IMG/VR virus record: IMGVR_UViG_3300028887_000105
Strand: one strand, 5' to 3'
Origin: a virus
Lineage: Duplodnaviria > Heunggongvirae > Uroviricota > Caudoviricetes
DNA: 64,000 nucleotides
The position numbers and the translations under genes are program-made. Below, one piece after another: positions 15,225 to 63,155 of this stretch (within the stretch, counting starts at the first letter, position 1; every line of letters starts with the position of its first letter). Below the pieces are notes generated by a model. The model worked only from the letters and a program-made list of their open reading frames with translations, did no database searches and was not told the origin of the DNA.

Positions 15225-15869
15225 ATGAAAAAAGTAGTAGACAATTTTGATCTATTTGGTCAAAAACTTTTCGAGAAAGAATTGAATGAGGATGAATTTT
15301 ACTTCCTCCAGGTCCTTGTGCGTGGTAAAGACGGTAACGCTGTAAGCGGTAATAACAAGAACCGCCTGGTACGTTACTATACCATTACTAACAAAGATCA
15401 ATTTTTTAGAATTAAGGATGAGGTTTTGGCATTGTGCCGAGTAAATAACGCACGTGCTTACATTCACCCAACTAAGCGTAGTTTCCAGGAAGTAGCAAAC
15501 ATTGTTTTGCAACTCACTGCTAAGACCTTTGTATCAAAGCAATGGAAGGGTCTTAAAAGCACGTATTCTACCGCTTGTGGACAAAGTTATATCACTGGTG
15601 ATAAGAAGTTCATTGTGGACCTGGATGACATTACAGATAAGGATGAGAAATTCAAGGAGATTGAAGAGTTCATCTTCAAACTTCGTGGACACGGTGGTGA
15701 GAACAGTGACAAGGTATTTATGAAGGTTCCAACAAAGAGTGGTTGGCACCTTATCACTTATCCGTTTGATCTTGGTACGTTCAGTGCTAAGTATCCAGAC
15801 ATTGATGTTCATAAGAACAATCCAACATTACTTTATTACGAATGGGAGGTAGCAGATGAAAGCATTTAA
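15225..15869 (+). CDS. tandem paralog 2 (DNFDL...EDEFYF...NNAR.Y...KRSF family)
   Basis: 214 aa; shared motifs with 14566 ORF. Confidence 0.6.
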   Translation: MKKVVDNFDLFGQKLFEKELNEDEFYFLQVLVRGKDGNAVSGNNKNRLVRYYTITNKDQFFRIKDEVLALCRVNNARAYIHPTKRSFQEVANIVLQLTAKTFVSKQWKGLKSTYSTACGQSYITGDKKFIVDLDDITDKDEKFKEIEEFIFKLRGHGGENSDKVFMKVPTKSGWHLITYPFDLGTFSAKYPDIDVHKNNPTLLYYEWEVADESI

Positions 15870-16451: not shown

Positions 16452-17354
16452 ATGAAGTGTGAAGGAAAAATATTGATCATATTACAAGGTCCTCCTTGTT
16501 CTGGAAAGTCCACATGGGCAAAGGAATATCAGGAAAAGTATCCTGATACATTGGTTGCCAATCGTGATACTATTCGTTATACGCTTGGCGAAGGTAAGTA
16601 TACAATGGACAGAGAAGATGAGGTCACTGAGATTGAAATGGCCCAGGTAAAGGGTGCAATGGGTGCTGGTAGAACTGTTGTTATTGACGACACTAACCTT
16701 AATCCTAAGTATCTTAAGCCTTGGTTAGACCTTGCTGAAGAAAAAGGCTATGAGGTAAGATATGAGAAATTGTACATACCTTATGGCGAGGCAATGGAAC
16801 GTTCTAAGAAGCGTAAGGAAGAAGGTGGTCTTTACATATCAAAAGATGTAATGCAGCGTTTCTATAAGAAATACTTCAAGGAAGAATTCGAGAAGGAAAT
16901 GACTGATTATCGTGTATTCAATATGAATAAGTATGACGATAAATTACCTAATTGTGTTATATGCGATTTAGACGGTACTATTGCTATGCATACGGGCCGA
17001 ACACCATTCGAGTGGGACAGATTATTCGAAGACCAAATTGATTGGCGTATGAAGGATATTTTGCGTGCCCTGGCTGCTACTGGTGCTGAGATTATATTCT
17101 TGACTGGTAGACAGGAATCTGTAAGAGAGAAGACAGAGGAATGGCTTACAGCCAATTTCGGTTGGAAACATCAGTTGATTATGCGTCCAGACAGAGAGTT
17201 TGGTAAGGGTAATGCTGTTAAGAAGGAACTATACGAAAAGTACGTTAAGGGTAAGTATAATGTAATCTGTGTGTTTGATGACGCAAATTATTGCGTTGAT
17301 ATGTGGCGCAATGAGGGATTGTTAACATTACAGGTTCAAGATTCAGATTATTAA
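16452..17354 (+). CDS. pnk: polynucleotide 5'-kinase / 3'-phosphatase (T4 Pnk-like)
   Basis: N-terminal P-loop GPPCSGKSTWA and DTNLNP; C-terminal HAD phosphatase DLDGT, LTGRQE, FDDA..VDMWR; collinear with T4 Pnk. Confidence 0.9.
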   Translation: MKCEGKILIILQGPPCSGKSTWAKEYQEKYPDTLVANRDTIRYTLGEGKYTMDREDEVTEIEMAQVKGAMGAGRTVVIDDTNLNPKYLKPWLDLAEEKGYEVRYEKLYIPYGEAMERSKKRKEEGGLYISKDVMQRFYKKYFKEEFEKEMTDYRVFNMNKYDDKLPNCVICDLDGTIAMHTGRTPFEWDRLFEDQIDWRMKDILRALAATGAEIIFLTGRQESVREKTEEWLTANFGWKHQLIMRPDREFGKGNAVKKELYEKYVKGKYNVICVFDDANYCVDMWRNEGLLTLQVQDSDY

Positions 17355-18451: not shown

Positions 18452-18853
18452 ATGAGAAAGAAAAAAGAAGAAGTAACAGAAGAGTTGGTACAGGAAGTTA
18501 AGTATCCAACAGTAGAAGAATTGGTAATTGAGTGTATTAAACACGACATACCAGTAAACGGTGTTGACTATAATGGTAGAAACCTGGAGTATGAGATTGG
18601 CGGTTTCTCAAAGAGTGGTACTGGAAAACTTACCACTGATGAGGACGGTAATACAATCTTAGTTACCAGATATAATACAGTAAACGAAGTAAGATCCTTT
18701 GAGGATATTGCTGACGTTGCATATGATTGGTATTATAACTACCGAGACAGAGAACCATTTACACAGCCAGATTATAACTGGGCACCAATATTTGTTGAAA
18801 TGGGTCTAATTGAGGAACGAATTGTTAAGACCTACGTCCCTGTAGTTCAATGA
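18452..18853 (+). CDS. hypothetical protein
   Basis: 133-aa ORF. Confidence 0.55.
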   Translation: MRKKKEEVTEELVQEVKYPTVEELVIECIKHDIPVNGVDYNGRNLEYEIGGFSKSGTGKLTTDEDGNTILVTRYNTVNEVRSFEDIADVAYDWYYNYRDREPFTQPDYNWAPIFVEMGLIEERIVKTYVPVVQ

Positions 18854-18910
18854 ATAGAACGTGGGTTTCCTAAACCTAAGATCTGCGTTTGATTCGCAGC
18901 AGGGGTACTT

Positions 18911-18941: not shown

Positions 18942-18974
18942 TATAATTACTACACTTTCTTTCTGTTCGGATCA

Positions 18975-19106
18975 GTTTGGCACGGTATTTGTAAGATAAA
19001 AATTGAGGCGCATAGTGAACAACTCACTCTCGCAGTTTTGAAATTAAAAAAAAATGTGTTACCTTTGCGGTACGAAATTGAAAAAACAGATTAAAATTTT
19101 AGTAAT
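18975..19106 (+). promoter_or_regulatory. conserved upstream element copy 3 (TGGCACG-N4-TTGTA core + sigma-A-like module)
   Basis: GTTTGGCACGGTATTTGTAAGATAAAA ... CACTCTCGCAGTTTTGAAATTAAAAAAAAATGTGTTACCTTTGCGG upstream of ATG 19107. Confidence 0.6.
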
Positions 19107-19386: not shown

Positions 19387-20202
19387 ATGGAAGAGAAATT
19401 TTTAACTAGAGAAATTGTACAACAAAACGGCTGGGACGAACTAGAGGTTATAACAGCCGACATGCTTGATGGGTATACGGAAATTGGATATGCTGCTTTC
19501 GGTAATTGTTACAATATTACTTCAATTACTATTCCAAATAGCGTAACATATATTGGCAATTCGGCTTTCGCTGGTTGCGACAGTCTTACATCTGTTATTG
19601 TTCCAAACAGCGTCATAACCATTGGTGCGAGTGCTTTTAGGGGTTGTTCAAATCTTAAATCAATTAATATTCCAGATAGTACAAAAGAAATTGGAGAATA
19701 TGCTTTCCATAGATGCAAAAGTCTTACTTCAATTACCATTCCAGATAGTGTAACACGTATGGAAAGCGGCGCTTTCGATGGTTGCTCCAGCCTTACATCT
19801 GTCACTATTCCCAACAGTGTAACATACATGGGATATTGGGTTTTCAACCATTGTTCATTCAAAACCCCAAAAAGATATGATGAACAAGGTCGTTTAATTG
19901 CCTATAAGGGATTTAATGCCGACATGTCATGTCGTGGTTTTCAATATGAGGAGGGTGAAACTTATGAAATGGATGGTGAGATTAAATTATGCGAACGAGG
20001 CTTTCATGCGTGCACAAACCCACTAGATTGTTTGAATTTCTATGGTGGTGAAATATGCAAAGACGTTGTATACCACGAGGTTTACCTTGAAGATGTATCT
20101 GATGAGAGTGGTGATGATTCAAAGGTAGTTGCAAGGAAAATCACCATTGGGCACGAAATAACGCTATCCGAAATGGCAGATATTGCAAGTGGTAAAAAAT
20201 AA
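19387..20202 (+). CDS. BspA-type leucine-rich repeat protein with unique C-terminal domain
   Basis: five to six ~23-aa repeats IPxSVTxIGxxAFxxCxSLTS; no signal peptide. Confidence 0.75.
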   Translation: MEEKFLTREIVQQNGWDELEVITADMLDGYTEIGYAAFGNCYNITSITIPNSVTYIGNSAFAGCDSLTSVIVPNSVITIGASAFRGCSNLKSINIPDSTKEIGEYAFHRCKSLTSITIPDSVTRMESGAFDGCSSLTSVTIPNSVTYMGYWVFNHCSFKTPKRYDEQGRLIAYKGFNADMSCRGFQYEEGETYEMDGEIKLCERGFHACTNPLDCLNFYGGEICKDVVYHEVYLEDVSDESGDDSKVVARKITIGHEITLSEMADIASGKK

Positions 20203-25768: not shown

Positions 25769-27982
25769 ATGGATTACGAGAAAGCATATAAAGAATTAGA
25801 AACAAAAGCGAAGTCATTTATTGCTAGATGGGAAGGCATCGAAGCAATTAATTCTGAACTTGCATTGAAAGAACTAAAGGATATGTTCAATGAATTCACA
25901 GAGAGTGAGGATGAGAAAATAAGGAAAGAACTGATTTACTTTTTTCAAAATAGAAGAAAGCAACAAGAAGAAGATAAGTACTATCAAGGCGTAGAGATTC
26001 TTGACAGATGGATTTCTTGGCTTGAAAAGCAAGGTGAACAGAAACCTATCTCTAAATTTAAGGTCGGAGACCGCATATACGACAAAAGAGATAGTTACAA
26101 CAGAAATGTTATTAGAGAGGTAGGTAAGGATTACTACATAAATGCTTTTGGCCAGAAGATGGATATGGCTTATACCAATGCCAACTTTGAATTTCTAGAG
26201 CATTTAGAGGACGACCATATCGATAGTAAGCCTGCCGAGTGGAGTAAAGAGGATGAAGAAATATGTCAAGGAATAATAAACACACTTGAAGGCTTGTACG
26301 AATCTGCATCAAGCGACACGGTTAAGGCTTTATATGCTGCGAAAGCAGATTGGCTCAAACACCTCAAACCGAAACCGAGACCAGAGTGGAGTGAAGAGGA
26401 TGAAAGTGTAGATACTAGATTTGCGTTTTACACATACAAAGACGAACCTAATGTATTGTATTTGTCAAATGTTTTTGTTGAAGAATCTAGTCGAAACGAA
26501 GGTAAAGGTACCGAAATACTCAAAGTTGCCGAGCAAGTCGCTAAATCACTCAATAAGACTACAATTCGTCTGAAAGTTAAAAAGGAATCTGAAGCAAACG
26601 AGTGGTATTATAAGCATGGGTATTCACTTATACAATGTGAAGATGAATATAATTGGCTTGAAAAGAAAATAGAGCAGAAGCCTATTATGATTCAATGGAC
26701 TGGAGATAATCTCAAAGACGTAACTGAGTTTACTGGTTATTCTCCTAAATTCAGCGAGTGGTTTAAGAATTGGGAAGAATATGAAACTTATGTTCATTCT
26801 CACAACAATATCTTTAAGATGTTTAATGAAGATGGTTCTCACTACGAAGTTCCTGTCGGTGCATGGATTGTAAAAACTCCAGACGGACATAATGTTGCTT
26901 CAAAAGCAACTTATATTCAGAAGCCTGCTTCCAAGGTTGAACCAATGTTTAAGGTTGGTGATTGGATTATATCTGACAAGGCACATGAGGATTATCGTAT
27001 CTGTAAAATTATTGAGGTTGGTAACGGAAATTATAAAATAGAGTCGATACACGGATATTGTGGTTATAACGAATATAAGTATTTTGACAATATATATAGA
27101 CTTTGGACCATTGAGGATGCAAAACCAGGTGATGTACTTGTAGATAATCATCCGTTTATTTTTGAAAAAGTTGATACTTCTGGCCACTGTTATGCTTATT
27201 GCGGTTTAAATCCGTTTGATGAGTTTATGATAGAGTCTGAGGGAGAATCGGGAGAATGGACGTGGCATCCTAATGTACATCCTGCAACAAATGAACAGAT
27301 TAACTTGTTATTTCAGAAAATGGAAGAAGCAGGTTATGAGTGGGATTCCGAAAAGTTAAAGTTGGTCAAAATTGATCAAGAAGAAGAGGACACCCCAAAG
27401 TTTAAGGTAAAAAAAGGTGAATGGTACGTTTGTACTAATACTTTTGTATTAAAAGGTAAAATTATTGCAATTAAGGGACAAACATATCAATCAAAACAAC
27501 AAGATAATACTATAACTTGTGAAGATAATTGTCTTTTTATTGATAGACATGATGGTAAGGCATCAGACTATTTTCGTCTTTGGACTATCCAAGACGCAAA
27601 GCCTGGTGATATCCTTACTGACAAAGATGGTTGTACCTTCATCTTTAGAGAATTAGACGCTGATTTTGACGAAACTATGGCTATGGCTTATTGCGGCATT
27701 AACAGTGATGGTTATTTTATTCTTTGCGAAAAAGGTAGAGTTTGGACAGATCCAGAAGAGGTATATCCAGCAGATTCAGACGATCGTAATCATTTGTTTG
27801 ACAAAATGAGGGACGCTGGTTATGAATGGGATTCCACAAAACTTGAGTTAAAAGTGGTCAAACAGGAACCACCAGTTGTAAAAAATGAAAATAAAGAACG
27901 TTTTGAACGTATTGTTGGATTTCTAAGATATAAAGGGTTTGAAGATGATGCTGACTGGCTCGAATCATCGAAATTTCATTAA
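25769..27982 (+). CDS. mosaic protein: N-terminal helical domain (shared with 5183), GNAT acetyltransferase domain, KVG beta-domains and two ~95-aa tandem repeats
   Basis: GNAT motif A LSNVFVEESSRNEGKGTEIL (RxxGxG); repeats FRLWTIEDAKPGDVL...AGYEWDSEKLKL / FRLWTIQDAKPGDIL...AGYEWDSTKLEL; three FKVGD motifs. Confidence 0.7.
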   Translation: MDYEKAYKELETKAKSFIARWEGIEAINSELALKELKDMFNEFTESEDEKIRKELIYFFQNRRKQQEEDKYYQGVEILDRWISWLEKQGEQKPISKFKVGDRIYDKRDSYNRNVIREVGKDYYINAFGQKMDMAYTNANFEFLEHLEDDHIDSKPAEWSKEDEEICQGIINTLEGLYESASSDTVKALYAAKADWLKHLKPKPRPEWSEEDESVDTRFAFYTYKDEPNVLYLSNVFVEESSRNEGKGTEILKVAEQVAKSLNKTTIRLKVKKESEANEWYYKHGYSLIQCEDEYNWLEKKIEQKPIMIQWTGDNLKDVTEFTGYSPKFSEWFKNWEEYETYVHSHNNIFKMFNEDGSHYEVPVGAWIVKTPDGHNVASKATYIQKPASKVEPMFKVGDWIISDKAHEDYRICKIIEVGNGNYKIESIHGYCGYNEYKYFDNIYRLWTIEDAKPGDVLVDNHPFIFEKVDTSGHCYAYCGLNPFDEFMIESEGESGEWTWHPNVHPATNEQINLLFQKMEEAGYEWDSEKLKLVKIDQEEEDTPKFKVKKGEWYVCTNTFVLKGKIIAIKGQTYQSKQQDNTITCEDNCLFIDRHDGKASDYFRLWTIQDAKPGDILTDKDGCTFIFRELDADFDETMAMAYCGINSDGYFILCEKGRVWTDPEEVYPADSDDRNHLFDKMRDAGYEWDSTKLELKVVKQEPPVVKNENKERFERIVGFLRYKGFEDDADWLESSKFH

Positions 27983-35782: not shown

Positions 35783-36349
35783 ATGACAGTAATATACGGA
35801 AATCGTGGAGATATGGACACCCTTATGCTACCTAGCATATGGGAGAGATTAGACAATGTAAATGTTGTTGAAATCGGTCTTAGAACGTTTCACTTCGAAG
35901 ATAGAGTAGCAGAGGCAATAGCCAATGAGGATGATACTCTTATTCTTTGCGGCCACGGAACGTCCTGGGGCCTTCTACACCCCAATTTCCATACTGGACA
36001 GTATATTATTCACGAGAACAATTATCGTGACATACACGCAAGAAATTTGATATGTGTATGGTGCCATGCTGCTGACTTTGCTGAGAGATATCACGTAAAC
36101 GGTTTTTTTAGTTCAATGTTCATATCGAACGTTAATGAAGCACAAGAGCACCTTGGTAATGGTACAGACCTTACACAAGATCAGATTGGAGACTCGGAAT
36201 TGATATTCTGCAGAAGACTTAATGCACTTCTTAGGGATGGTACACCACTTAACGAGTGGGTGCCTACTTTGAAGAGTTTAATGAATGAAAATAATATGGT
36301 GGAGAGATATAATTATAATGGTTTAAAATTTTTTGAGAATTATGAATGA
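35783..36349 (+). CDS. hypothetical protein with His/Cys dyad arrangement (LILCGHG ... LICVWCHAAD), possible clan-CD-like peptidase fold
   Basis: 188 aa; spacing of GHG and hydrophobic-strand + Cys resembles caspase-like dyad; weak. Confidence 0.5.
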   Translation: MTVIYGNRGDMDTLMLPSIWERLDNVNVVEIGLRTFHFEDRVAEAIANEDDTLILCGHGTSWGLLHPNFHTGQYIIHENNYRDIHARNLICVWCHAADFAERYHVNGFFSSMFISNVNEAQEHLGNGTDLTQDQIGDSELIFCRRLNALLRDGTPLNEWVPTLKSLMNENNMVERYNYNGLKFFENYE

Positions 36350-37811
36350 GATTTTTACACAAAGTGAAAACATCAAGCACGAGTACTGTTGTACTATCGT
36401 GCGCATCGGCGAGATCAAGCCAATCGAGGGCAGGGATCGAATTGTACAGACACTGGTAAACGGTTTGTCTATGGTAATTCGTAAGGACCAGGTAAAAGAG
36501 GGTGACCTTATGATTTACGCGATGAACGAAACACAGTTGTCCGAGAAGTTCCTTGCTGCTAATAACCTGTATGCTATCGACTGTTACGAAAAGAACAGTA
36601 ATGCCCCAGAGGTGGGTCAATTACTATTCGACGGTAAGAACGATGAGGCAAAGGAACACGTTGGTTTCTTCAATAAGTATGGCCGAGTGAAATTGATTAG
36701 ACTTGGTGGTGTACCTTCATTCGGATACCTCTTCACTGTTAACGAACTTGCAAAGGTATATCCTGAGGTTCTTAATGTTAACCTTGAGGAACTGGTAGAC
36801 ACCGACTTCGATACCGTATGCGGTGAGGAATTTGTAAAGGTATATATGCCACCTGTAAAGGAAGCAACACCTCGTGGTTCAAAGGAAGCAAAAATGCAGC
36901 GTAAACTCGCTAAGTTTGATCGTATGCTTCCAGGCCAGTTTGCTTTCCACTATGAGACAAAGCAACTCGCAAGGTACATTTCTTACATCAAGCCTACCGA
37001 CGTGGTAACCATTTCTGTTAAGATGGACGGTACTTCATTTATTGTTGGTAATATCCTTGTTAAGTTCCCTAAGTGGGATGGTTTCTACAAGAAGATATTC
37101 CCATATCTTCCTAAGTTCCTACAATTCACTCGCGAGGATTATGATATTGTTTATTCTTCACGTAAGGTGATTATCAATAAGGATATTAATCCTAACAAGG
37201 GTGAAGGATGGGATGGTGGTTCTGTACAGAAGGCCATTACTGTAGTTGCCGATCTTATCAGGGACTATGTTCCTAAGGATATGACTATCTACGGTGAGAT
37301 TGTTGGTTATTACAATCAGACTAACAAGGCTATCCAAACTCGTGGTGGTAAGGATTATGACTATGGTTGCCCAGTGGGTACCAACAGGTTTATGCCTTAT
37401 CGAATTGTTACAAAGAACGAGGATGGTACAAATCACGAATGGAACGTTTGTGAGGTTTACGATTGGACTATCAATTTCATGAAGGAACATGAGGACCTTG
37501 CTAAGTACGTACAACCAATCGTTATCGTTTACCACGGTACGCTTGCTGACCTTTATCCACAACTTGACGTTGAGAATCATTGGCACGAGAATGTTCTTGA
37601 GGCTATGAAGAACGACAAGAAGACACTTGGTCTTGAGGTATATGAGCCAATGTGTAAGGATAAGGTATGGCGTGAAGGTGTAGTACTCCGTGTTGACGAC
37701 GATATGGTTAACGAAGCCTTCAAGTTGAAGAGTGTTAAATACTCTGAGAAGGAACGTGAGGATTACGACAAGGGTGTCATTGACCAGGAAGCAATGGAAG
37801 GATACCTTTAA
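36342..37811 (+). CDS. RNA ligase (covalent nucleotidyltransferase superfamily) with N-terminal OB-like domain
   Basis: track start 36333 is TTG, ATG at 36342; motif I ISVKMDGTS (KxDG), III TIYGEIVG, IV REGVVLRV (EGxxxR/K), V FKLKSVK; ~200-aa N-terminal OB-like domain as in Rnl5-type ligases; GC above background. Confidence 0.8.
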   Translation: MNEIFTQSENIKHEYCCTIVRIGEIKPIEGRDRIVQTLVNGLSMVIRKDQVKEGDLMIYAMNETQLSEKFLAANNLYAIDCYEKNSNAPEVGQLLFDGKNDEAKEHVGFFNKYGRVKLIRLGGVPSFGYLFTVNELAKVYPEVLNVNLEELVDTDFDTVCGEEFVKVYMPPVKEATPRGSKEAKMQRKLAKFDRMLPGQFAFHYETKQLARYISYIKPTDVVTISVKMDGTSFIVGNILVKFPKWDGFYKKIFPYLPKFLQFTREDYDIVYSSRKVIINKDINPNKGEGWDGGSVQKAITVVADLIRDYVPKDMTIYGEIVGYYNQTNKAIQTRGGKDYDYGCPVGTNRFMPYRIVTKNEDGTNHEWNVCEVYDWTINFMKEHEDLAKYVQPIVIVYHGTLADLYPQLDVENHWHENVLEAMKNDKKTLGLEVYEPMCKDKVWREGVVLRVDDDMVNEAFKLKSVKYSEKEREDYDKGVIDQEAMEGYL

Positions 37812-37885: not shown

Positions 37886-38413
37886 ATGGGATACGAAATT
37901 TCATTTAAACCTACAGAAGAGGCGATGGCTAAATTAAAGCCCTGGGGTGATTCATACCAATCATCAACCAAGAAACAACGAATTGAGTTGATTGCATATT
38001 GTATGAGAAAGTCGGATGAACCGACAATAAAAATATATGATAACATTAATTTCTATCTTAGATTTTTGAAAGAAAGTGTTAGAACCGACGAACGCGCATT
38101 TGCTTATAAAAGATGGAAAGAAAACGAAGAAAAAGAAATATGGTATTGCGGTTGGGAATTTTCCCGTCCTTCCAGTGTCGACATTGATGAGGTTATTGAA
38201 TTTACAACACAGGAATTAACAATTTTAACCGCTGTGGTTGAAACACCAGACTATTTTGAAAATAACGATAAATTCTACGAAAAGTATCGTGAAGTGATAA
38301 AAAGAATTGACGATTTCATTGACACAATGGAAGAAGTTACTATACATGAAATAATTGAAGAACTTGACGAATTTAAAGAGAAATACGAAGAAGAAAATGA
38401 TCAAGAAGTATAG
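37886..38413 (+). CDS. hypothetical acidic protein
   Basis: 175-aa ORF. Confidence 0.5.
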   Translation: MGYEISFKPTEEAMAKLKPWGDSYQSSTKKQRIELIAYCMRKSDEPTIKIYDNINFYLRFLKESVRTDERAFAYKRWKENEEKEIWYCGWEFSRPSSVDIDEVIEFTTQELTILTAVVETPDYFENNDKFYEKYREVIKRIDDFIDTMEEVTIHEIIEELDEFKEKYEEENDQEV

Positions 38414-39311
38414 AATAATAGGGGATATTCATGGTAGAACTAATTGGCATAAGTTAGTAGAACCATTTGACGAAGAAACAATGTACATCTTCGTCGGGGA
38501 TTATGTGGACCCATACTATCATCTGGAAGATGTTACATTTGATCAAATGTTTTCTGAAATGGAATCTATCTTCAAAATGAAACAGGAACATCCTGATAAT
38601 GTAATTATTCTGCTTGGTAACCACGATCTTCAATATATTATAAAATATGGAGAAACAAGTCGTTATGAAATAAGCATCAGTAAAAGGAACAAATTGTTCA
38701 ACTTTTTTGACGAGAATTTGAAATATACAGATGGTGTTGCGTATCAAATTAACAACAAATATCTTATCACGCACGCTGGTGTTACTAAAGAGTGGTATGA
38801 AACATACTTTGGCGAATTTAAAAAAGACACAACGCTTGAAGAAATAGTTAAAAACATAAATGAACTGTGGGAAAACAACAAGTCTGCATTTTATTTTTGT
38901 GGTAAATTCTCAGATTCTTACGGTGTATCGGAATCTCAAGGACCATTATGGATACGACCTGAAACATTATGGTATGCAAATTTATTTGGCTTTGACAGTG
39001 GTATAATTCAAATTGTTGGACATACACCATATGAATCAGATTTCCCTGGTTTGGCACCTAATGATGATAATCGTATAGCAACAATTGGCACCGTAAAAAT
39101 ACCAGCAGACAAAGAAGAAATCGAAAATGATTTATATTTTAATGACGGTACAAATATTTGTCAACGAATTGATAATAAACCATTACATGTAGATATTATA
39201 CTCGTTGATTGTTTACGTCGGGAAACCGCTTGTCTCGACATTGGTGCTGAAACTAACGGTTGGAAACAAGTATATTTTGGTGATGTTGAAAATAAAAAAA
39301 TTAAATGGTAA
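38397..39311 (+). CDS. PPP-family Ser/Thr-phosphatase-like metallophosphoesterase (lambda PPase / ApaH-like)
   Basis: GDIHGR, GDYVDPY (GDxVDRG-like), GNHD, HAGV, GHTP motif series. Confidence 0.8.
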   Translation: MIKKYRIIGDIHGRTNWHKLVEPFDEETMYIFVGDYVDPYYHLEDVTFDQMFSEMESIFKMKQEHPDNVIILLGNHDLQYIIKYGETSRYEISISKRNKLFNFFDENLKYTDGVAYQINNKYLITHAGVTKEWYETYFGEFKKDTTLEEIVKNINELWENNKSAFYFCGKFSDSYGVSESQGPLWIRPETLWYANLFGFDSGIIQIVGHTPYESDFPGLAPNDDNRIATIGTVKIPADKEEIENDLYFNDGTNICQRIDNKPLHVDIILVDCLRRETACLDIGAETNGWKQVYFGDVENKKIKW

Positions 39312-47990: not shown

Positions 47991-48362
47991 ATGACAAAGA
48001 CAGCAGTAATGCAATCGGATTTTAACATCACTGGAGAAATAGGTGGTGTTAAATATAAATATATAAAGATTCCATGGGTTGAACATCTAGAGATATATAA
48101 GTATTATCATGATAGTCAATCTGCGGAAAGAATTAATGAACGTGGTGGTTTTGGTGTAAGAGAAGCCGCTTATATGGGTTATAATCCTCTAGTTATTTGG
48201 GTAATTTATGATTACAGCGAAAAAGATAGTGATTGGACAAAAGTAGCACTCCTTTTTGATAAAGACTCTGATTTTAGATCATACCGTTACAGGGTTTTAA
48301 CTGAAGAAGAATACAAAAGTCTTGATATATTTGAAAAAATTAAAGATACGTATGATAATTGA
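47991..48362 (+). CDS. hypothetical protein
   Basis: 123-aa ORF. Confidence 0.5.
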   Translation: MTKTAVMQSDFNITGEIGGVKYKYIKIPWVEHLEIYKYYHDSQSAERINERGGFGVREAAYMGYNPLVIWVIYDYSEKDSDWTKVALLFDKDSDFRSYRYRVLTEEEYKSLDIFEKIKDTYDN

Positions 48363-48780
48363 AAATGAAAATTATGTTAGTTTTGAAACAGCAAAACTAT
48401 TGAAAGATAATGGATTTGATTGGTCTTGCCGAGCAAGATACGGAAGTGCTGGTTCTTTCTGTTATGAAAAATATCCGATTGAAGCAAGTGGATGTGAAAT
48501 GCACAATTGTATACTTTGTCCAACTCTTCAAATGGCTAAGAAATGGTTAGAAGAAGTTCACAATCTTTTCATTACTATTGAAATAAAAGGTGATCCACGA
48601 AAAGAGGATTTCATTTATTATAAATGGTCTGTTGCAAAATTTTGTTGTGTTAAAATTGAAAGAATTGATAACGGTTTAAACACACCAGAAGATTATTGGC
48701 TTGCACCTGAGGAAGAGGATGAAAAACCTGAATATGCGTGTGAAGCAGCAATTAAATATTGTCTTGAAAATTTGATTTGA
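48352..48780 (+). CDS. paralog family A protein
   Basis: MIIENENYVSFETAKLLKDNGFD ... LQMAKKWLEEVHNLFI ... ACEAAIKYCLENLI. Confidence 0.55.
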   Translation: MIIENENYVSFETAKLLKDNGFDWSCRARYGSAGSFCYEKYPIEASGCEMHNCILCPTLQMAKKWLEEVHNLFITIEIKGDPRKEDFIYYKWSVAKFCCVKIERIDNGLNTPEDYWLAPEEEDEKPEYACEAAIKYCLENLI

Positions 48781-48782
48781 TT

Positions 48783-49202
48783 ATGATAGAAGAAGCATAC
48801 GTTAGTTTTGAAGTGGCAAAACTTCTGAAAGAGAAGGGTTTTGATGTTGATACTCCAACAAGATATGCTATTGAAAAGGTAACAGAATCTTGGTATGATG
48901 ATTATCGGGAAAGAGTTGTTAAATTCGATTGGGATAGCGGTTATTTTTTAGGCATAAATGATATAAAACACGATATTAGTGGAGATACTATATCTGCTCC
49001 TACCCAACAGATGGCAATGCAATGGTTGAGAAAAATGGGTTGGTTTATTCATATTGATGTCATTCGAGAGGTGTCCTGCTGGACAGCAGATATTCAAGAT
49101 ATAAAGAATGATGTTGCCATTTATGCGGTTGAAAAAGAATTTCCCAACTATGAACAAGCATGTGAAGCAGCAATTAAATATTGCCTTGAAAATTTGATCT
49201 AA
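48783..49202 (+). CDS. paralog family A protein
   Basis: track start 48777 is TTG; ATG 48783; EEAYVSFEVAKLLKEKGFD ... identical C-terminus ACEAAIKYCLENLI. Confidence 0.55.
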   Translation: MIEEAYVSFEVAKLLKEKGFDVDTPTRYAIEKVTESWYDDYRERVVKFDWDSGYFLGINDIKHDISGDTISAPTQQMAMQWLRKMGWFIHIDVIREVSCWTADIQDIKNDVAIYAVEKEFPNYEQACEAAIKYCLENLI

Positions 49203-56728: not shown

Positions 56729-57163
56729 ATGAAAACAAGTGAACTTCAAAACGAAACCAGTTCTTTGATAAAAGAACATAGCAAATTGTATAAATTAATT
56801 GACGAAAAAGAAGAAGCCATTACAGTTAAAGCAAGGGAATTACTAAATGAATTGCGTAAACTGGATAATTGGGAGGTAATGATTGACGAGTGTAAAGACC
56901 ACTATGAACGATTTCCTGACGAATTCTTTGATTGGTGTCATGTAGAATTTGAAAAAAATAAGGTTTATTTTGTGAAGAATTATAGTGATGACGATGACGA
57001 TTATTATGTTCTTACTATTGATTTGTCTAAGCCTTTAGAAGATCAAATAAAGGAAAAACAAGAAAAGATAAAAAAAGACGAGGAAAAAGAAAAAGAAAAA
57101 ATTAAGGCAAAAGAACTTGCCGAATTAAACCGTTTAAAAGAAAAATATGAAACATTACGATAG
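56729..57163 (+). CDS. coiled-coil hypothetical protein
   Basis: 144 aa; KEKEKIKAKELAELNRLKEKYE. Confidence 0.5.
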   Translation: MKTSELQNETSSLIKEHSKLYKLIDEKEEAITVKARELLNELRKLDNWEVMIDECKDHYERFPDEFFDWCHVEFEKNKVYFVKNYSDDDDDYYVLTIDLSKPLEDQIKEKQEKIKKDEEKEKEKIKAKELAELNRLKEKYETLR

Positions 57164-57824
57164 TATACCGAGAATACAAGATGATGGCACTTTGAAAGGT
57201 GAAATGGTTGTAGGTTATAACAAACTGGATGGCCAAAACTTTTGTGTAGCATATAATTGTAGAAAGAAAACCTGGGGTCCTTACGGTTCCAGGACAGTGA
57301 CTGTAGATGAAAACTCTGAACAGTTTGGAGAAACTGTAAAGTTCTTTAACAACTCTGATTACAAGGAGATTCTGGAAAGAATTGTGAAGGAGTTTTCTGG
57401 AAAGGGTGACGTGTTTAACGGTGTTGATGAAATCACATTCATATTTGAATGGTATGGATGGAATTCATTTGCTGGGAAGCATAAAGAAGGTGATACGATG
57501 AACCTGGCTCTTATTGATGTATTCCTCAAAAAGAGAGGTTATATTGAACCAAAGAATTATGAAATGTGTTTCAGATATTGTGGTATTGAACTTCCCGATC
57601 TAATTTATTCAGGGCCGCTAAATAGCGAAATTATTGAAAAAGTTCAGAACAACGACTGGACACAACCTGATTGTTGGAATCCACACGTTCACGAAGGTGT
57701 TGTATTTAAAAGAACAACATTGCTTAAGGGTCAGCGTAGACCGTCTGTAAAGGTAAAAACAAAGTGGTGGATAGATAAACTTCATTCAATGTATAGTGAA
57801 GAGGAATGTAAAAAACTTGAGTAA
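57147..57824 (+). CDS. Rnl2-like adenylyltransferase-domain RNA ligase (stand-alone NTase domain)
   Basis: motif I YNKLDGQN (KxDG), III ITFIFEWYG, IV HEGVVFKR (EGxxxK), V VKVKTK; size/layout like T4 Rnl2 N-terminal domain. Confidence 0.75.
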   Translation: MKHYDSIPRIQDDGTLKGEMVVGYNKLDGQNFCVAYNCRKKTWGPYGSRTVTVDENSEQFGETVKFFNNSDYKEILERIVKEFSGKGDVFNGVDEITFIFEWYGWNSFAGKHKEGDTMNLALIDVFLKKRGYIEPKNYEMCFRYCGIELPDLIYSGPLNSEIIEKVQNNDWTQPDCWNPHVHEGVVFKRTTLLKGQRRPSVKVKTKWWIDKLHSMYSEEECKKLE

Positions 57825-58219: not shown

Positions 58220-58507
58220 ATGGAAACACAAACTAGAACAAAGACTGTAGATTATACAGTGTACGTCGCAGAAGACGGTAAAGAATTTGATAAGAAGTCA
58301 GATTGCGAACTCCACGAGAAGTTCCTACATGGAGACGCAAAAGAATGCCCTGAATGTCACGGAAAGGGTGAATTATGGGAAGAGTATGAAGATACCAATT
58401 ACCACACAGGAGCACCTGAGACATATACACGTTTTTATAAATGTCCTAAGTGCCAGGGTAAAGGTTATTTAATTAAGAAAGTTAAAACACAAACTTTTTG
58501 GGTATAA
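58220..58507 (+). CDS. Zn-binding hypothetical protein
   Basis: 95 aa; CPECHGKG ... CPKCQGKG. Confidence 0.5.
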   Translation: METQTRTKTVDYTVYVAEDGKEFDKKSDCELHEKFLHGDAKECPECHGKGELWEEYEDTNYHTGAPETYTRFYKCPKCQGKGYLIKKVKTQTFWV

Positions 58508-58508
58508 T

Positions 58509-59165
58509 ATGGATAAAGATTTTGAACAATACAAACAAGAGGCAAAGGACCGACTATTGAAAGCAATAGAGGAACAGGACAAACTTATCAAAGCAAAGGA
58601 AGAACTTATTAAGGAACTTCAGACTGACTTTGATAGGATTGCTCGTTTTCAGCCTGGTAGTTTTATTGTTAATGAATATGGGCGTGGTTTAGAACCAACT
58701 TATTTTCTAATTGTTGGTATGCCGATAATTGAGGCGGGTAAGATAAAAATACCAATTAGACACCATATTTATCCAATCTTTCATGGGACATCCATTTCTC
58801 TGAATATGTCTGGTGTTATTGATATGGTAGTGGCACCACTGGATAAGATGGATAAAATTAAAATTATCACCGCCCAAGAGTATTTTGAATTACAGAAGTC
58901 TAAATTAAAAGATGATTTCGAAAAAAGTATTCCTGCCTATGAAAAACGTATTGAAAACTGCAGAGAAGAAATCAACGAAATTAAGAAAGATATAAAACAC
59001 TATCAAGATATAATTAAGGAATATAAATCGATTGATTTTGACACGGTGTATTCCGAATATATTGATAAATATTTGAAAACTGATAGATACAATGATGCGG
59101 TGTTCAAAACTAAAAAATCAAACTATTGTGATTCATATAGATATAATATAGATTTAAATGTATAA
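58509..59165 (+). CDS. coiled-coil hypothetical protein
   Basis: 218-aa ORF. Confidence 0.5.
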   Translation: MDKDFEQYKQEAKDRLLKAIEEQDKLIKAKEELIKELQTDFDRIARFQPGSFIVNEYGRGLEPTYFLIVGMPIIEAGKIKIPIRHHIYPIFHGTSISLNMSGVIDMVVAPLDKMDKIKIITAQEYFELQKSKLKDDFEKSIPAYEKRIENCREEINEIKKDIKHYQDIIKEYKSIDFDTVYSEYIDKYLKTDRYNDAVFKTKKSNYCDSYRYNIDLNV

Positions 59166-59167
59166 CT

Positions 59168-59356
59168 ATGATAATCGTTAAAGATTTAAGAGTACACAAC
59201 AAGTACAGATTCACACATTTGGGCTGTTGTGAGTTCATTGCAGAAGGTAATGAATTTAAATGGACAACTGTAGGATATAATGAAACAGTTGCCGATGTTA
59301 TTTGTCCACAGTGTGGTAAACAATTTTATGATAGTCCAACAGTAATACCAGAATAA
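59168..59356 (+). CDS. small Zn-ribbon protein
   Basis: 62 aa; GCCEF...CPQCG. Confidence 0.45.
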   Translation: MIIVKDLRVHNKYRFTHLGCCEFIAEGNEFKWTTVGYNETVADVICPQCGKQFYDSPTVIPE

Positions 59357-59358
59357 TT

Positions 59359-59751
59359 ATGGAACAGTTTGTTTGTACAACAATAGAACAGAGTAAGGCA
59401 TTGCTTGACGCAGGCCTGGACATTGAATCTGCAGATATGTATTATCGTTACGATTATAACGAACATACCTGTGAAAACAGTGTACCAAAAATACTTGAAG
59501 TATCAGTATGGGATGATCCTAATTGTAAAGATATACCAGCCTGGAGTGTTGGTAAATTGATCAATCTTATGCCTGATACAATGTATGGGCCATATCCGCC
59601 CGATCATTCAACGGACCTTATGATAAATAATAAGGTAGTTAATTACTTTGACTGGACTGGAATGCAACATGGTCCCGATTTTACTGGCGGCAGTTTACGA
59701 GATAACTGTGTAGAAACAATAAAATGGCTATTAAAAAACGAAATCATATGA
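59359..59751 (+). CDS. paralog family B protein
   Basis: TTIEQSKALLDAGLD ... PAWSVGKLINLMPD; similar to 9114. Confidence 0.55.
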   Translation: MEQFVCTTIEQSKALLDAGLDIESADMYYRYDYNEHTCENSVPKILEVSVWDDPNCKDIPAWSVGKLINLMPDTMYGPYPPDHSTDLMINNKVVNYFDWTGMQHGPDFTGGSLRDNCVETIKWLLKNEII

Positions 59752-60038
59752 CAAAGACATTTAGACAATTAGAACGAGGTGATAAGATTTTAGTTAAAAA
59801 CATAACAAAACATGTACCTTGCAATGTTACAATAGACGACCATCATTACATAACGGAAGTTGTTAGTGAAGATAAAACAATGACTATTGACACATTCTCT
59901 CATTATGATAATGGTCTTGGAGGTAAGTTGGTAGAGTTTTATGCATATCCTTATTTAGGTGTAACTCTCAGATTTGAAATGGCTGTAGACGACTTAGATA
60001 AAACAGAAACAGAAAAATATAAAATATTAGACATATGA
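59748..60038 (+). CDS. hypothetical protein
   Basis: non-overlapping ATG inside track ORF 59724. Confidence 0.45.
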   Translation: MTKTFRQLERGDKILVKNITKHVPCNVTIDDHHYITEVVSEDKTMTIDTFSHYDNGLGGKLVEFYAYPYLGVTLRFEMAVDDLDKTETEKYKILDI

Positions 60039-60433
60039 CAAATCAAGATAAAGAACTATTATTGAAAGACCTTTGTGGAAGGTTGTATTATGGCGTTAAA
60101 TTTCACTATTTCTCAGAATTTGCTGATGGTGAAGACCCAGAATTTGATAATACTATCGTAATGATAGATATGGCTGATGAGCAAATCCTTGACGAAGACC
60201 ATGAAGATTATATTCCAATCAGACAGATAGTGCCGTATCTCCGTCCATTATCTAGTATGACTGATGAAGAAGATAAAGAATTTGCTCTTCTTCAAACTGA
60301 CTTTTATGTTGATGGGTTTCTTTATCCAATTGCAGCAGTAAATATGATTAATTGGCTTAATAAACATCATTTTGACTACAATGGATTAATTGAAAAAGGC
60401 TTAGCATTGGAGGCACCTAAAGATATGTATTAA
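60035..60433 (+). CDS. tandem family copy 1 (DLCGRLYYGV / YLRPLSSMTDEE / HHFDYNGLIEKGLALEAPKDMY)
   Basis: 132 aa; family motifs. Confidence 0.6.
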   Translation: MTNQDKELLLKDLCGRLYYGVKFHYFSEFADGEDPEFDNTIVMIDMADEQILDEDHEDYIPIRQIVPYLRPLSSMTDEEDKEFALLQTDFYVDGFLYPIAAVNMINWLNKHHFDYNGLIEKGLALEAPKDMY

Positions 60434-60435
60434 TT

Positions 60436-60840
60436 ATGGAAAAAGAAAAACAATATTTTAAGACTCAGATTACACGCAATGGATTAGATCTTATCGTTAA
60501 AGATATGTCTGCTCGTATAGCATACGGAGTAATGGTTTCCGATGTACATATGGATGGAGATGTATTAACCTCGCCATATAAATTGTGGGATATTATTATT
60601 GATGACTGGTACGATGAAAATTTTGATAATTACCAAATGTGCTATCTTCGTCCCATGTCAAGTATGACAAAAAAAGAAAAAGAAGAGTTTGAAAAAACTT
60701 GTTTCTTTTCCAATGAGATTGGTACTATTCAAACTATAGAAAGTGCTGATTGGTTAAATGCACATCACTTTGATTACCGTGGTTTAATTGAATTAGGTTT
60801 AGCATTTAAGGCCCCTAAAGATATGTATAAATTCGAATAA
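60436..60840 (+). CDS. tandem family copy 2 (divergent N-terminus; CYLRPMSSMTKKEKEEF / HHFDYRGLIELGLAFKAPKDMYKFE)
   Basis: 134 aa. Confidence 0.6.
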   Translation: MEKEKQYFKTQITRNGLDLIVKDMSARIAYGVMVSDVHMDGDVLTSPYKLWDIIIDDWYDENFDNYQMCYLRPMSSMTKKEKEEFEKTCFFSNEIGTIQTIESADWLNAHHFDYRGLIELGLAFKAPKDMYKFE

Positions 60841-60842
60841 TT

Positions 60843-61277
60843 ATGACACAAGAAGAAAAAGAATTATTAGCAAAAGATATTTTTAGTCGTGCAATGTGTG
60901 GATTAAAGGTACAATATCATGGAGAAATATATACTTTGGGATATAACCTTTATCTGGAAGAAAGTTCAACAGCGTTTGAAAGTTATCCAATGAAATGTTT
61001 TCTAAGTAAGATTGAGGAAATTAAACCCTATCTTCGCCCAATGTCAAGTATGACTGAGGAAGAACGTAATGATTTTGAAGATGAATCTCATGGCTGGTTT
61101 TATGTTAATGATGATGGTGAAATATATCCTATTGGTCAATTTACTGATAGTGGTGAATTTGAAGATGGAATATTAGGTGGTATAGAATATTTAAATAAAA
61201 ACCATTTTGATTACCGTGGTTTAATTCATAGAGAACTTGCTCTTGAAGCACCTGAAGATATGTATAAAACAAAATAA
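60843..61277 (+). CDS. tandem family copy 3
   Basis: 144 aa; MTQEEKELLAKDIFSRAMCGL / YLRPMSSMTEEERNDF / HFDYRGLIHRELALEAPEDMY. Confidence 0.6.
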   Translation: MTQEEKELLAKDIFSRAMCGLKVQYHGEIYTLGYNLYLEESSTAFESYPMKCFLSKIEEIKPYLRPMSSMTEEERNDFEDESHGWFYVNDDGEIYPIGQFTDSGEFEDGILGGIEYLNKNHFDYRGLIHRELALEAPEDMYKTK

Positions 61278-61279
61278 CT

Positions 61280-61729
61280 ATGACACAAGAAGATAAAGAA
61301 CTATTATTGACAGACATTTGTGCAAGACTACCTTATGGTGTTAAAGTAGAAAATACAAGTTTTTCAGAATCACAAATACATACACTGTTCGGTAGAGTTT
61401 CTGATGATGAATTTCTGATGTTAGAAACATATAAAAGTGTTGGTGGTGAAGATTATAGAAGAGTTACCGATGATATACATTATACAGGTTATTTAGAAAA
61501 CATTAAACCTTATCTCCGTCCTATGTCAAGTATGACTGAAAAGGAATGTTATGAATTGCATTTCATTAGAAGCAATTTTACGGATAATTGGAAGTACATC
61601 AAGACTCCGATTCCGTTGAGTATCGCTAACTATAATCAAGTCGATTGGCTCAACAGTCATCACTTTGATTATCGAGGTTTAATTGAAAAAGGGCTTGCAC
61701 TTGAAGCACCTGCAGATATGTATAAATAA
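61280..61729 (+). CDS. tandem family copy 4
   Basis: 149 aa; MTQEDKELLLTDICARLPYGV / YLRPMSSMTEKECYEL / HHFDYRGLIEKGLALEAPADMY. Confidence 0.6.
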   Translation: MTQEDKELLLTDICARLPYGVKVENTSFSESQIHTLFGRVSDDEFLMLETYKSVGGEDYRRVTDDIHYTGYLENIKPYLRPMSSMTEKECYELHFIRSNFTDNWKYIKTPIPLSIANYNQVDWLNSHHFDYRGLIEKGLALEAPADMYK

Positions 61730-61740
61730 CTTTTATTGAT

Positions 61741-61941
61741 ATGATAAAGACATGTTACTATGCTATTATAGATAAATGGTATGATACGTATATTGGCAAT
61801 GACAACAAGAAACACCGTAAATACTATACTAATATAATACATTATATGGAAGGTGGATATCCAATGAAATACATAGAAAATATTAATAAACTACCTAGAC
61901 ATCAATATAGTTATATTTGGAGTTTTTGTCCAATTAAGTAA
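61741..61941 (+). CDS. hypothetical Tyr-rich protein inserted in tandem array
   Basis: 66-aa ORF. Confidence 0.4.
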   Translation: MIKTCYYAIIDKWYDTYIGNDNKKHRKYYTNIIHYMEGGYPMKYIENINKLPRHQYSYIWSFCPIK

Positions 61942-61954
61942 ATAATAGATAGAT

Positions 61955-62314
61955 ATGACACAGGAAGATAAAGAATTATTATTGAAAGATCTTTGTGCAA
62001 GGTTACCTTATGGCGTAATGTTATATGTTGAAGGTATAAAGAAAAATATTAAGTTATTTGCAGTTGAAGATACTGGAATAAACGGTTTTCAATTTCAGTT
62101 TGTTAAACCATATCTCCGTTCAATGTCTTCGATGACAGAAGATGAAATAGAAGAATATAATAATATAACTCTTATTCATACTCCTTGGGGCATTATGACA
62201 GACAGAATAATCGAATTAATCAATTTTCTCAACTCTCGCCACTTTGACTACAGAGGACTCATAGATAAAGGTATTGCACTTGAAGCACCTAAAGATATGT
62301 ATAAATTTGATTAA
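61955..62314 (+). CDS. tandem family copy 5
   Basis: 119 aa; MTQEDKELLLKDLCARLPYGV / YLRSMSSMTEDEIEEY / HFDYRGLIDKGIALEAPKDMYKFD. Confidence 0.6.
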   Translation: MTQEDKELLLKDLCARLPYGVMLYVEGIKKNIKLFAVEDTGINGFQFQFVKPYLRSMSSMTEDEIEEYNNITLIHTPWGIMTDRIIELINFLNSRHFDYRGLIDKGIALEAPKDMYKFD

Positions 62315-62315
62315 T

Positions 62316-62477
62316 TATGAAAAAATATCACTCAAAAGGTACATGTTCTCAATGTCTTTTTGGTCCATATTATAAAAATGGTAAGAATTGGTGTACTGAG
62401 CATAATAGAGAAATTAAAAATCCAAATATAGAACATTGTAATCAATTTTGGAGAGGTGATTTTGCAAAAAGAAAATA
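62316..62477 (+). CDS. small Cys-containing protein
   Basis: 53 aa; CSQCLFGPYY...C. Confidence 0.3.
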
Positions 62478-62488
62478 ATTTAAAAATT

Positions 62489-62644
62489 ATGACACAAGAA
62501 GAAATTAAACAATATCTTAAAGACAATTTGAAATTGGGATATTTTAAATATAGATCGTGCGGTCAAAATTACATAGGTTTTAAACTTACGTTAGGCGAAG
62601 AAATAATCAGTGAAATTAGACCAAGTATAAAATCCTTTTTTTAA
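62489..62644 (+). CDS. small hypothetical protein (MTQEE start)
   Basis: 51 aa inside track ORF 62456. Confidence 0.35.
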   Translation: MTQEEIKQYLKDNLKLGYFKYRSCGQNYIGFKLTLGEEIISEIRPSIKSFF

Positions 62645-62646
62645 TT

Positions 62647-62826
62647 ATGATCACAGTAATAAATAATTACATACAGTGTGACGAATGTGGTAGGGATTTG
62701 GCATATGACAATAGTGATACCTATGAATCCTGGAACTGGAACCATAGATATAGAGTAATATATTTGGATTGCCCTAAATGTGGTAATTCTATTGCAATAA
62801 GACGATTAGAAGAAAAAAATGTATAA
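62647..62826 (+). CDS. small Zn-ribbon protein
   Basis: 59 aa; CDECG ... CPKCG. Confidence 0.3.
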   Translation: MITVINNYIQCDECGRDLAYDNSDTYESWNWNHRYRVIYLDCPKCGNSIAIRRLEEKNV

Positions 62827-62828
62827 TT

Positions 62829-63155
62829 ATGTACAGAAAGTATGGAATAGCAATTTTACCTTGGAGAGGGGACCCAAAAACATTAATCGAATGGAGAAGT
62901 GAAGATGATGCATTCGTTAATGTAAGTGATGAACATTTTGGAGGTATACCAGAAGACAAGGTTGATTTTGATATTGATCACGTCGTAGATTTTCTATTAG
63001 GTGAAGGAAGATACCAAATGGGATTATACTTACCTGATGAAATATTAAAATTAATGAAACAAAGATGCCCAGAATCGGAAACTTGGTTGATGGGACAAAT
63101 TGATTATATGATTAGGCAAAACAGAAGATATTATGACACAAGAAGAATTATTTGA
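62829..63155 (+). CDS. hypothetical protein
   Basis: 108-aa ORF. Confidence 0.5.
   Translation: MYRKYGIAILPWRGDPKTLIEWRSEDDAFVNVSDEHFGGIPEDKVDFDIDHVVDFLLGEGRYQMGLYLPDEILKLMKQRCPESETWLMGQIDYMIRQNRRYYDTRRII

Follow-up and report, generated by a model that had tools for sequence, protein, structure and literature searches.

We analysed a family of small proteins encoded in a 64,000-nucleotide stretch of a Caudoviricetes virus (IMG/VR record IMGVR_UViG_3300028887_000105), referred to here as the window, which corresponds to about positions 52,967–116,966 of a 253,946-bp ENA metagenome contig. The window has a GC content of 35%, and the 153 open reading frames (ORFs) called in it are mostly small and co-oriented and cover 94% of its length. 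Its largest paralog set consists of six genes, five of them in a tandem array and a sixth standing away from it. An earlier note made from the DNA letters had reported six paralogs of 119–149 amino acids (aa) at these positions, and all six were recovered by ORF calling, alignment and a six-frame profile search. Their coordinates are given below, with those of three conserved boxes (N-terminal, N; central, M; C-terminal, C) and two variable cassettes (V1 and V2) in each gene, and with those of one ORF that lies within the array.

60035–60433, + strand: copy 1, 132 aa; N 60035–60103, V1 60104–60226, M 60227–60283, V2 60284–60349, C 60350–60430
60436–60840, + strand: copy 2, 134 aa; N 60469–60537, V1 60538–60633, M 60634–60690, V2 60691–60747, C 60748–60831
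60843–61277, + strand: copy 3, 144 aa; N 60843–60911, V1 60912–61019, M 61020–61076, V2 61077–61184, C 61185–61268
61280–61729, + strand: copy 4, 149 aa; N 61280–61348, V1 61349–61501, M 61502–61558, V2 61559–61642, C 61643–61726
61741–61941, + strand: ORF of 66 aa in the 225-nucleotide gap before copy 5; not a family member
61955–62314, + strand: copy 5, 119 aa, the shortest; N 61955–62023, V1 62024–62101, M 62102–62158, V2 62159–62221, C 62222–62305
6658–7059, + strand: copy 6, away from the array, 133 aa; N 6658–6726, V1 6727–6834, M 6835–6891, V2 6892–6969, C 6970–7053

The first four genes of the array are spaced by 2 nucleotides (nt), and copy 1 overlaps the gene upstream by 4 nt. As the earlier note had stated, the ORF at 61741 interrupts the array without belonging to the family (family profile expectation value, E, 1.8). 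It is annotated as a gene by the ENA gene caller; its coding status is uncertain, because no homologue was found in 120 related loci, the source contig itself aside. A promoter and terminator scan of the array returned nothing above shuffled controls. Three further family copies were located ~18–21 kb beyond the window end, at ~132.4–135.4 kb of the same contig, and the genome therefore carries at least nine copies; the six genes listed above, though genuine, are not the full set.

When a profile built from the six copies was searched against all six-frame ORFs of the window, exactly these six were recovered at E 1e-50 to 1e-60. Because the profile recovers those six alone, with the best non-member at E 0.88, the family lies far beyond chance. 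Alignment of the six proteins revealed 25 invariant columns. The motifs previously described as invariant do mark conserved boxes; strict invariance did not stand, since variants occur among the copies (YLRPLSSMTDEE, YLRSMSSMTEDE, HHFDYNGLI, NHFDYRGLIHRELALEAP and HHIDYRGLIPMGLALPAPEGMY) and copy 2, which has an N-terminal extension of 11 residues, carries a degraded and divergent N box.

Compared with one another, the six copies are 34–47% identical in protein and 54–62% in DNA. Closer relatives of each copy (54–79%) sit in other contigs and not in its own genome, whose paralogs rank only 30th to 271st among the ~276 matches of each window copy. Synonymous codons inside the boxes have freely diverged among the six copies, indicating that the constraint on the boxes acts on the protein. 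Recent tandem amplification and gene conversion among the window copies are ruled out by the low DNA identity, the diverged synonymous sites and the nearer foreign relatives, and the six genes are old paralogs.

A profile built over 346 family domains resolved the protein into five segments, given here by profile position with the frequency of the modal residue.

Positions 5–27: N box, about 0.8–1.0
Positions 28–68: V1, 0.1–0.4
Positions 69–87: M box, about 0.8–1.0
Positions 88–113: V2, 0.1–0.4
Positions 114–141: C box, about 0.8–1.0

The variable regions are therefore real and not an alignment artefact. Instead of one variable core, the family has two independent cassettes, parted by the central box. 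V1 measures 29–51 aa and is beta-rich; V2 measures 17–41 aa and forms a helix and loop. The median identity of random members is 73% in the boxes, 18% in V1 and 15% in V2. Together the three boxes contribute a scaffold of ~70 conserved residues to a protein of typically ~135 aa, consisting of an N-terminal helix, a central PYLRPMSSMTEEE strand with the start of a helix, and a C-terminal DWLNxHHFDYRGLIxxGLALEAPxxMY tail. Its invariant polar residues are K6, D12, R16, Y19, Y63, R65, S68, S69, T71 and E74 and, in the C-terminal part, N108, H110, H111, D113, Y114 and R115.

AlphaFold2 models of copy 6 (predicted local distance difference test, pLDDT, 86.1; predicted template modelling score, pTM, 0.81) and copy 4 (pLDDT 82.5, pTM 0.76) have the same topology despite their different cassettes. 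In the modelled order, a helix precedes three or four strands that make up V1, and the PYLRP strand and a long helix come next; V2 is a loop, after which stand a further helix and the conserved tail, which is extended and has short beta-bridges. In both models pLDDT is 93–97 in the boxes and lowest in the cassettes, and the boxes are predicted to pack into one scaffold composed of a small beta-barrel and a helical hairpin. Family proteins have a median isoelectric point (pI) of 4.9, a net charge of −8 and no hydrophobic segment, and their cassettes are poor in lysine and arginine. Fusions join some members to another family domain and some to DUF6794, the only foreign partner that recurs, and one protein has an IBR-like zinc finger. 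The uncharacterised DUF6794 was found at the C-terminus of some members or encoded near arrays in 10 of 120 loci (L001 10637–11347, P0128, L014, L040 and 6 other loci).

V1 and V2 assort independently. In alignments, the nearest relatives of each window copy have V1 or V2 in common with it, never both. Over 542 unique domains (146,611 pairs) the identities of V1 and V2 were uncorrelated (Spearman rho 0.007), and rho was 0.005–0.007 across the 346- and 542-domain sets. Of 258 pairs with V1 identity of at least 80%, 217 had V2 identity below 30%; conversely, V1 identity was below 30% in 375 of the 438 pairs with V2 identity of at least 80%. Approximately 85% of the pairs with one common cassette at this level thus carry an unrelated second cassette. 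Because the profile used to select the hits contained the window's own cassettes, the test was repeated on a set of 248 copies from loci chosen by box patterns only. Rho was −0.002 in this set, and at a threshold of 60% identity 38 of 42 V1-sharing pairs were unrelated in V2 and 40 of 44 V2-sharing pairs were unrelated in V1.

Typing of the cassettes by single linkage at 50% identity yielded 236 V1 types, 236 V2 types and 325 combinations among the 346 domains. The V1 type of copy 6 (27 members) meets 23 V2 types, and its V2 type (22 members) meets 14 V1 types. The V1 types of copy 3 (14 members) and copy 4 (21 members) meet 11 and 18 V2 types, respectively. Copy 1 has a V2 type common to 14 other proteins with 14 different V1 types, and the V2 of copy 2 was also found in P0043, there beside a different V1.

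Identity in DNA switches inside the boxes. One such switch delimits a patch in copy 4.

61334–61539, + strand: recombination patch in copy 4, comprising V1 and the box edges (PYGV...SSMT); 94% DNA identity (194/206) to L040 10001–10260

Outside this patch, the identity of copy 4 to L040 is 80% in the 5′ N box, 25% in V2 and 76% in the C box; the BLAST similarity starts 4 nt before the start codon, and the neighbouring genes are dissimilar. The mirror pattern of DNA identity was observed in 13 independent V2-sharing pairs, and in copy 1 the segment 60227–60433 is 73% identical to L054 and L051. Copy 6 is demonstrably a chimera: its left block (6658–6903) is 89.4% identical to L042 2115–2360, its right block (6841–7052) is 87.3% identical to L043 10175–10386, and the two blocks overlap in the M box only. 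Between copies with unrelated cassettes, box DNA is 63–67% identical and exact matches have a median length of 9 nt (95th percentile 17–20 nt, maximum 47 nt), while codon sharing in the boxes is modestly over expectation (0.46–0.52 vs 0.39–0.40). Where genes stand in tandem, the C box of each runs up against the N box of its successor, which results in repeats of ~129 nt. The architecture of boxes and cassettes and its recombination are the part of our explanation that we hold with high confidence.

Diversifying selection had been proposed for the variable parts. Inside shared cassette types, the ratio of nonsynonymous to synonymous substitution rates (dN/dS) was 0.19 for V1 and 0.13 for V2 and exceeded 1 in no pair, so that there is no sign of positive selection on substitutions. 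These values indicate that the cassettes are conserved functional modules and not fast-mutating loops, and that the diversity is combinatorial, arising by recombination and not by rapid point mutation. The cassettes fall into many discrete, old types under purifying selection. Diverse variants are kept within each genome: no cassette type is held twice in the 26-copy array of locus L070, where maximum identity is 32% for V1 and 31% for V2, and the repertoire is therefore non-redundant. From the mosaic patterns we infer a mechanism in which homologous or microhomology recombination within the boxes would join paralogs and genes of co-infecting phages, and selection for in-frame products would then follow.

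The six genes belong to a very large multigene family that is confined to large uncultured phages of the gut and rumen, and the array is a small instance of it. At least 8,000 clusters at 90% identity were found by profile search, and HMMER against 1.84 billion 50%-identity representatives returned 7,576 at E≤1e-3 and 1,104 at E≤1e-30; no family match from the cluster searches bore a Pfam domain or an informative name. Family matches are located on metagenomic contigs, many of 150–413 kb, and in IMG/VR on viral contigs of 100–413 kb. In GTDB the family was found only in rumen and gut metagenome-assembled genomes, on contigs of 286–410 kb that look like mis-binned phage genomes; no host was assigned from the names of these carriers (Prevotella, Firmicutes, Tenericutes and others). 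Searches of a GenBank phage collection (50,697 records) by blastn and tblastn with two copies and the consensus gave no meaningful match. A multi-copy arrangement is the rule for the family. Across 78 IMG/VR loci (1.4 Mb) we counted 223 full copies, 222 of them on the strand of the query copy, with gaps between successive copies of <1 kb in 107 of 145 cases and of <60 nt in 34. The densest loci hold 26 copies in 20 kb (L070), 16 (L071) and 13 (L089), beside which the window's five-gene array is modest; other loci contain 5 copies in 6.4 kb and 6 in 20 kb.

PHROG 10841, a group of unknown function and without annotation, was matched by 121 of 122 members at E≤0.01 (best 1.9e-13) and by all six window copies at E 4.6e-8 to 6.3e-3, weak values that point to a distant relation. 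The N- and C-terminal boxes align with both ends of its 163-position profile. Searches of Pfam, NCBIfam and PADLOC with the six copies, and of Pfam with 122 members, reached no cut-off and produced nothing consistent. TFIIE-A_C, the commonest weak Pfam match (13 of 122 members), falls on the acidic SSMTEEE stretch and looks compositional, and a weak match of one member to CdiI_4 (E 0.039) is probably due to chance. Sequence and fold searches of the PDB and a search of BFVD identified no characterised protein, no search being aimed at anti-defence families (Acr, Ocr/Ard, Tad, Acb, Gad and others). With PDB sequence profiles (full length and C box) we obtained a marginal motif match only, to 9mlu_C (E 0.056 and 0.11). 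This chain is named 'Fibronectin-binding protein', and a fragment of it had no tblastn match among phages. A Foldseek search of the PDB returned nothing at E<1. Similarity scores to small beta-barrels (Sm/Hfq, SH3, KOW, PAZ, WYL) were under the usual homology levels, and the helical hairpin and conserved C-terminal tail of the family are without counterpart in them; for Sm/Hfq-like proteins in particular, neither Sm1/Sm2 motifs nor convincing fold similarity was seen.

The family thus belongs to no characterised family, and its fold is without a solved relative. That no domain is recognisable, as first remarked, held for Pfam, NCBIfam, PADLOC and PDB relatives. The claim of a novel family was right in that the family is uncharacterised and wrong in so far as it implied a small one, given >7,500 clusters at 50% identity and the relation to PHROG 10841. 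In the literature we found no description of the family or of its cassette reassortment.

The arrays occupy dense, co-oriented small-gene regions, and no structural or fibre gene was present beside any array examined. Related loci encode a sigma factor, a CCA-adding enzyme, and Thg1, Lar, pentapeptide, LRR and ExoX-like genes. The window itself also encodes PNKP, two RNA ligases, a metallophosphatase, GNAT and SPFH proteins and a tRNA. An RNA-repair style set in the window (16452–17354, 36333–37811, 57147–57824, 38355–39311 and 18836–18908), made up of a polynucleotide kinase-phosphatase, two RNA-ligase-domain proteins, a metallophosphatase and tRNA-Arg(CCT), is consistent with a counter-measure to anticodon nucleases. 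On the same contig, ~3–8 kb beyond the window (L122 15912–16532 and 18330–20423), a GmrSD_N (DUF262) protein and an NAD synthase and NAPRTase pair are encoded, gene kinds linked to restriction and NAD-depletion conflicts.

Other small genes were noted in the window. On either side of the array lie several genes for very small proteins of the zinc-ribbon or DnaJ (CXXCXGXG) type (58220–58507, 62317–62478 and 62647–62826), and a gene pair encoding a 95-aa zinc finger and a 218-aa protein (58220–59165) has a syntenic counterpart in L042, placed there immediately after a family copy. Two paralogs of 127–130 aa without a Pfam match are found two genes upstream of the array (59359–59751) and 2 kb downstream of copy 6 (9114–9497), and homologues of this pair, a recurrent neighbour, lie near family copies in 12 other loci (L017, L024, L031, L046, L056, L071 and others). 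Five unrelated genes (1704, 6380, 7426, 62489 and 63133) begin with MTQEE(K/I/L), as the N box does, perhaps because such a start suits translation initiation or because 5′ ends are exchanged on a small scale. Further small paralog sets comprise 8755–9111, 48352–48780 and 48783–49202, the latter two in tandem, and 14566–15213 with 15225–15869. A 737-aa GNAT-containing protein (25769–27982) has a region in common with a 333-aa protein (5183–6184), and a 271-aa ORF (19387–20202) contains a tandem duplication of ~135 nt (19480–19613 and 19687–19820, 76% identity).

An intergenic element of ~115–150 nt is present in three copies of ~80% identity (704–853, 2965–3102 and 18969–19085) and also at 20235, 32755 and 47508. 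It carries the exact 16-mer TGGCACGGTATTTGTA, which resembles a sigma-54 promoter (TGGCAC-N5-TTGT) and occurs exactly four times in the window, or eight times with up to three mismatches against 0.53 expected. About 58 nt downstream of the 16-mer lies TTTG-N18/19-TAccTTTG, which fits the Bacteroidota −33/−7 promoter consensus; no such element was found in or near the array. These promoter-like elements hint at the host phylum and at the transcription units of the phage.

Taken whole, the explanation that we favour, a recombining scaffold-plus-cassette family acting as a binder repertoire, stands at about an even chance. Its functional part, a repertoire of intracellular binders or adaptors directed at variable host targets, is offered tentatively. 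It is suggested by the sequences, because these are small soluble proteins with an invariant polar scaffold and exchangeable cassettes, held in large non-redundant repertoires and encoded in accessory regions. The fold would come from the scaffold, which possibly also offers a shared docking or ligand site, given how many of its polar residues are invariant; the two cassettes would determine which of the variable host targets are recognised, in take-over of the host or in counter-defence. The putative roles of decoy or inhibitor and of host-range modulation, first raised in the earlier note, are plausible. A more far-reaching and more doubtful version would be an antibody-like library at the population level, aimed at host defence or take-over targets that vary. 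In it, a new fold with a fixed scaffold in three parts would display two independently exchangeable specificity cassettes; each huge gut or rumen phage would hold non-redundant versions by the dozen, and recombination would spread cassette types in their hundreds through the phage population. The proteins would possibly also act as hetero-oligomers, at which the natural tandem fusions (P0121–P0124) hint.

A number of points weigh against the favoured explanation. Within the scope of the PDB and BFVD searches, nothing among the characterised proteins of anti-defence or host take-over matched the family. The association with counter-defence-type genes is weak, because these lie kilobases away and are common in such phages, and the window proteome is nearly as acidic as the family (median pI 5.3 vs 4.9), so that acidity is not distinctive as a signal of DNA mimicry. 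Only ~40 pairs per cassette entered the dN/dS estimates, and these are short and not independent of one another; the packing of the boxes was derived from secondary structure and pLDDT only. As for the exchange itself, no recombinase was identified and the exact matches in the boxes are short. Finally, the invariant polar residues could mean that a conserved site, and not the cassettes, is the business end.

This last point leads to the alternative that survives best, which we nevertheless regard as unlikely. Here the boxes would form an enzyme-like, metal-, nucleotide- or nucleic-acid-end-binding pocket on the small beta-barrel, making the protein, for example, a sponge or an RNA/DNA-end binder, and the cassettes would do no more than tune localisation, partners or stability.

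It is less probable that the proteins are virion-associated host-range modules, whose scaffold would dock on the tail or fibre while the cassettes touch variable surface receptors and the large repertoire widens host range. The surfaces of gut Bacteroidota are highly variable, and a Bacteroidota-type promoter motif is present in the window. The design logic is also that of the phage adhesin gp38 (PMC3157838); there is, however, no sequence or fold similarity to gp38, and structural and fibre genes are missing beside the arrays. Moreover, the proteins are small, acidic and lysine-poor and have no lectin-, Ig- or beta-helix-like fold, and 26 alternative adhesins per genome would be unprecedented.

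The tandem arrangement of divergent small paralogs with a common fold and variable surfaces also recalls bacterial tandem immunity arrays, and the CdiI_4 match noted above, probably fortuitous, points the same way. That the family comprises diversified small neutralisers of polymorphic toxins or abortive-infection effectors is nonetheless improbable, since no cognate toxin genes are adjacent, no immunity family was matched consistently, and the family occurs on phage-like contigs only and not at bacterial toxin loci.

It is very improbable indeed that the hypervariation is programmed by a diversity-generating retroelement or a shufflon/invertase, or that the arrays grew as neutral, selfish amplifications through unequal crossing-over: the boxes are direct repeats flanking every cassette and the 129-nt C-box/N-box junction repeats could drive unequal crossing-over, but the only repeats at hand are the boxes at 60–92% identity, the cassettes are unrelated and of different lengths and are not A-site point variants, and the paralogs are old, under purifying selection and non-redundant. 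For a retroelement target, no template repeat or template-like near-identical DNA was detected in the window, which was not scanned for a reverse transcriptase; for invertible segments, no inverted repeats occur in 59000–63000, and the copies are co-oriented in 222 of 223 cases.

In summary, this is an uncharacterised family of big uncultured gut and rumen phages, each of which holds a varied repertoire. The route of its diversification, two cassettes reassorted at boxes, is readable directly from the sequence. As the halves of one gene differ in history, whole-gene orthology is meaningless for the family, which is a warning for annotation. Whatever its function, the family can serve as a marker by which a large clade of big, uncultured phages is recognised, and it is a natural experiment in scaffold-plus-cassette design, in which a 70-residue scaffold tolerates hundreds of unrelated inserts at two sites. 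If the proposed function is correct, few uncharacterised protein families in the gut and rumen virome would be larger, and bacterial viruses would have in it a clear counterpart to the multigene families that serve host range and immune evasion in large eukaryotic viruses. Paired cassette types are candidates for screens against Bacteroidota or Firmicutes defence systems.

Among known systems, gp38 of T-even phages has conserved motifs that form a core and separate easily interchanged specificity segments (PMC3157838). The likeness lies in this design principle, and in the present family the boxes are also the recombination breakpoints. In contrast, gp38 is a single-copy virion protein encoded next to the fibre gene and has four short loops, whereas the present family is multi-copy (up to 26 in 20 kb) and acidic, has two cassettes and is encoded in non-structural regions. 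Membership in the gp38-type adhesins, which have glycine-rich motifs, a fibre-attachment domain at the N-terminus and a gene beside that of the long tail fibre (PMC3157838), was not supported: neither glycine-rich motifs nor structural genes in the annotated neighbourhoods were found.

A second comparison is with the internal proteins of T-even phages, whose polymorphic locus encodes proteins with a common capsid-targeting leader of 10 residues and of which at least IPI* is an injected anti-restriction protein. They resemble the present family in their tandem small genes, plastic region and conserved N-terminal segment on otherwise unrelated bodies, but the present family has three conserved boxes and not just a leader; what is seen at its N-terminus is a conserved helix, and no prohead-protease site or packaging evidence was found for it. 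The MGF360/505/110 families of African swine fever virus (ASFV) and the ankyrin/PRANC and kelch families of poxviruses have a presumed or demonstrated part in modulating host range and immunity. Like the present family, they are sets of diverged paralogs in large tandem arrays, housed in the accessory regions of big viral genomes, with a common scaffold and variable surfaces. The folds are unrelated, however, and the present hosts are bacterial; we know of no description of cassette-level reassortment at conserved boxes in the ASFV or poxvirus families. In Neisseria pilE/pilS and similar systems of antigenic variation, variable mini-cassettes lie between short conserved segments that act as recombination junctions, with one expressed locus and silent donors, whereas the copies in the present family are all complete ORFs, each having a start codon, and exchange takes place between phage lineages. 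The design principle itself, conserved motifs delimiting exchangeable segments, is known already from gp38 and from the pilin mini-cassettes.

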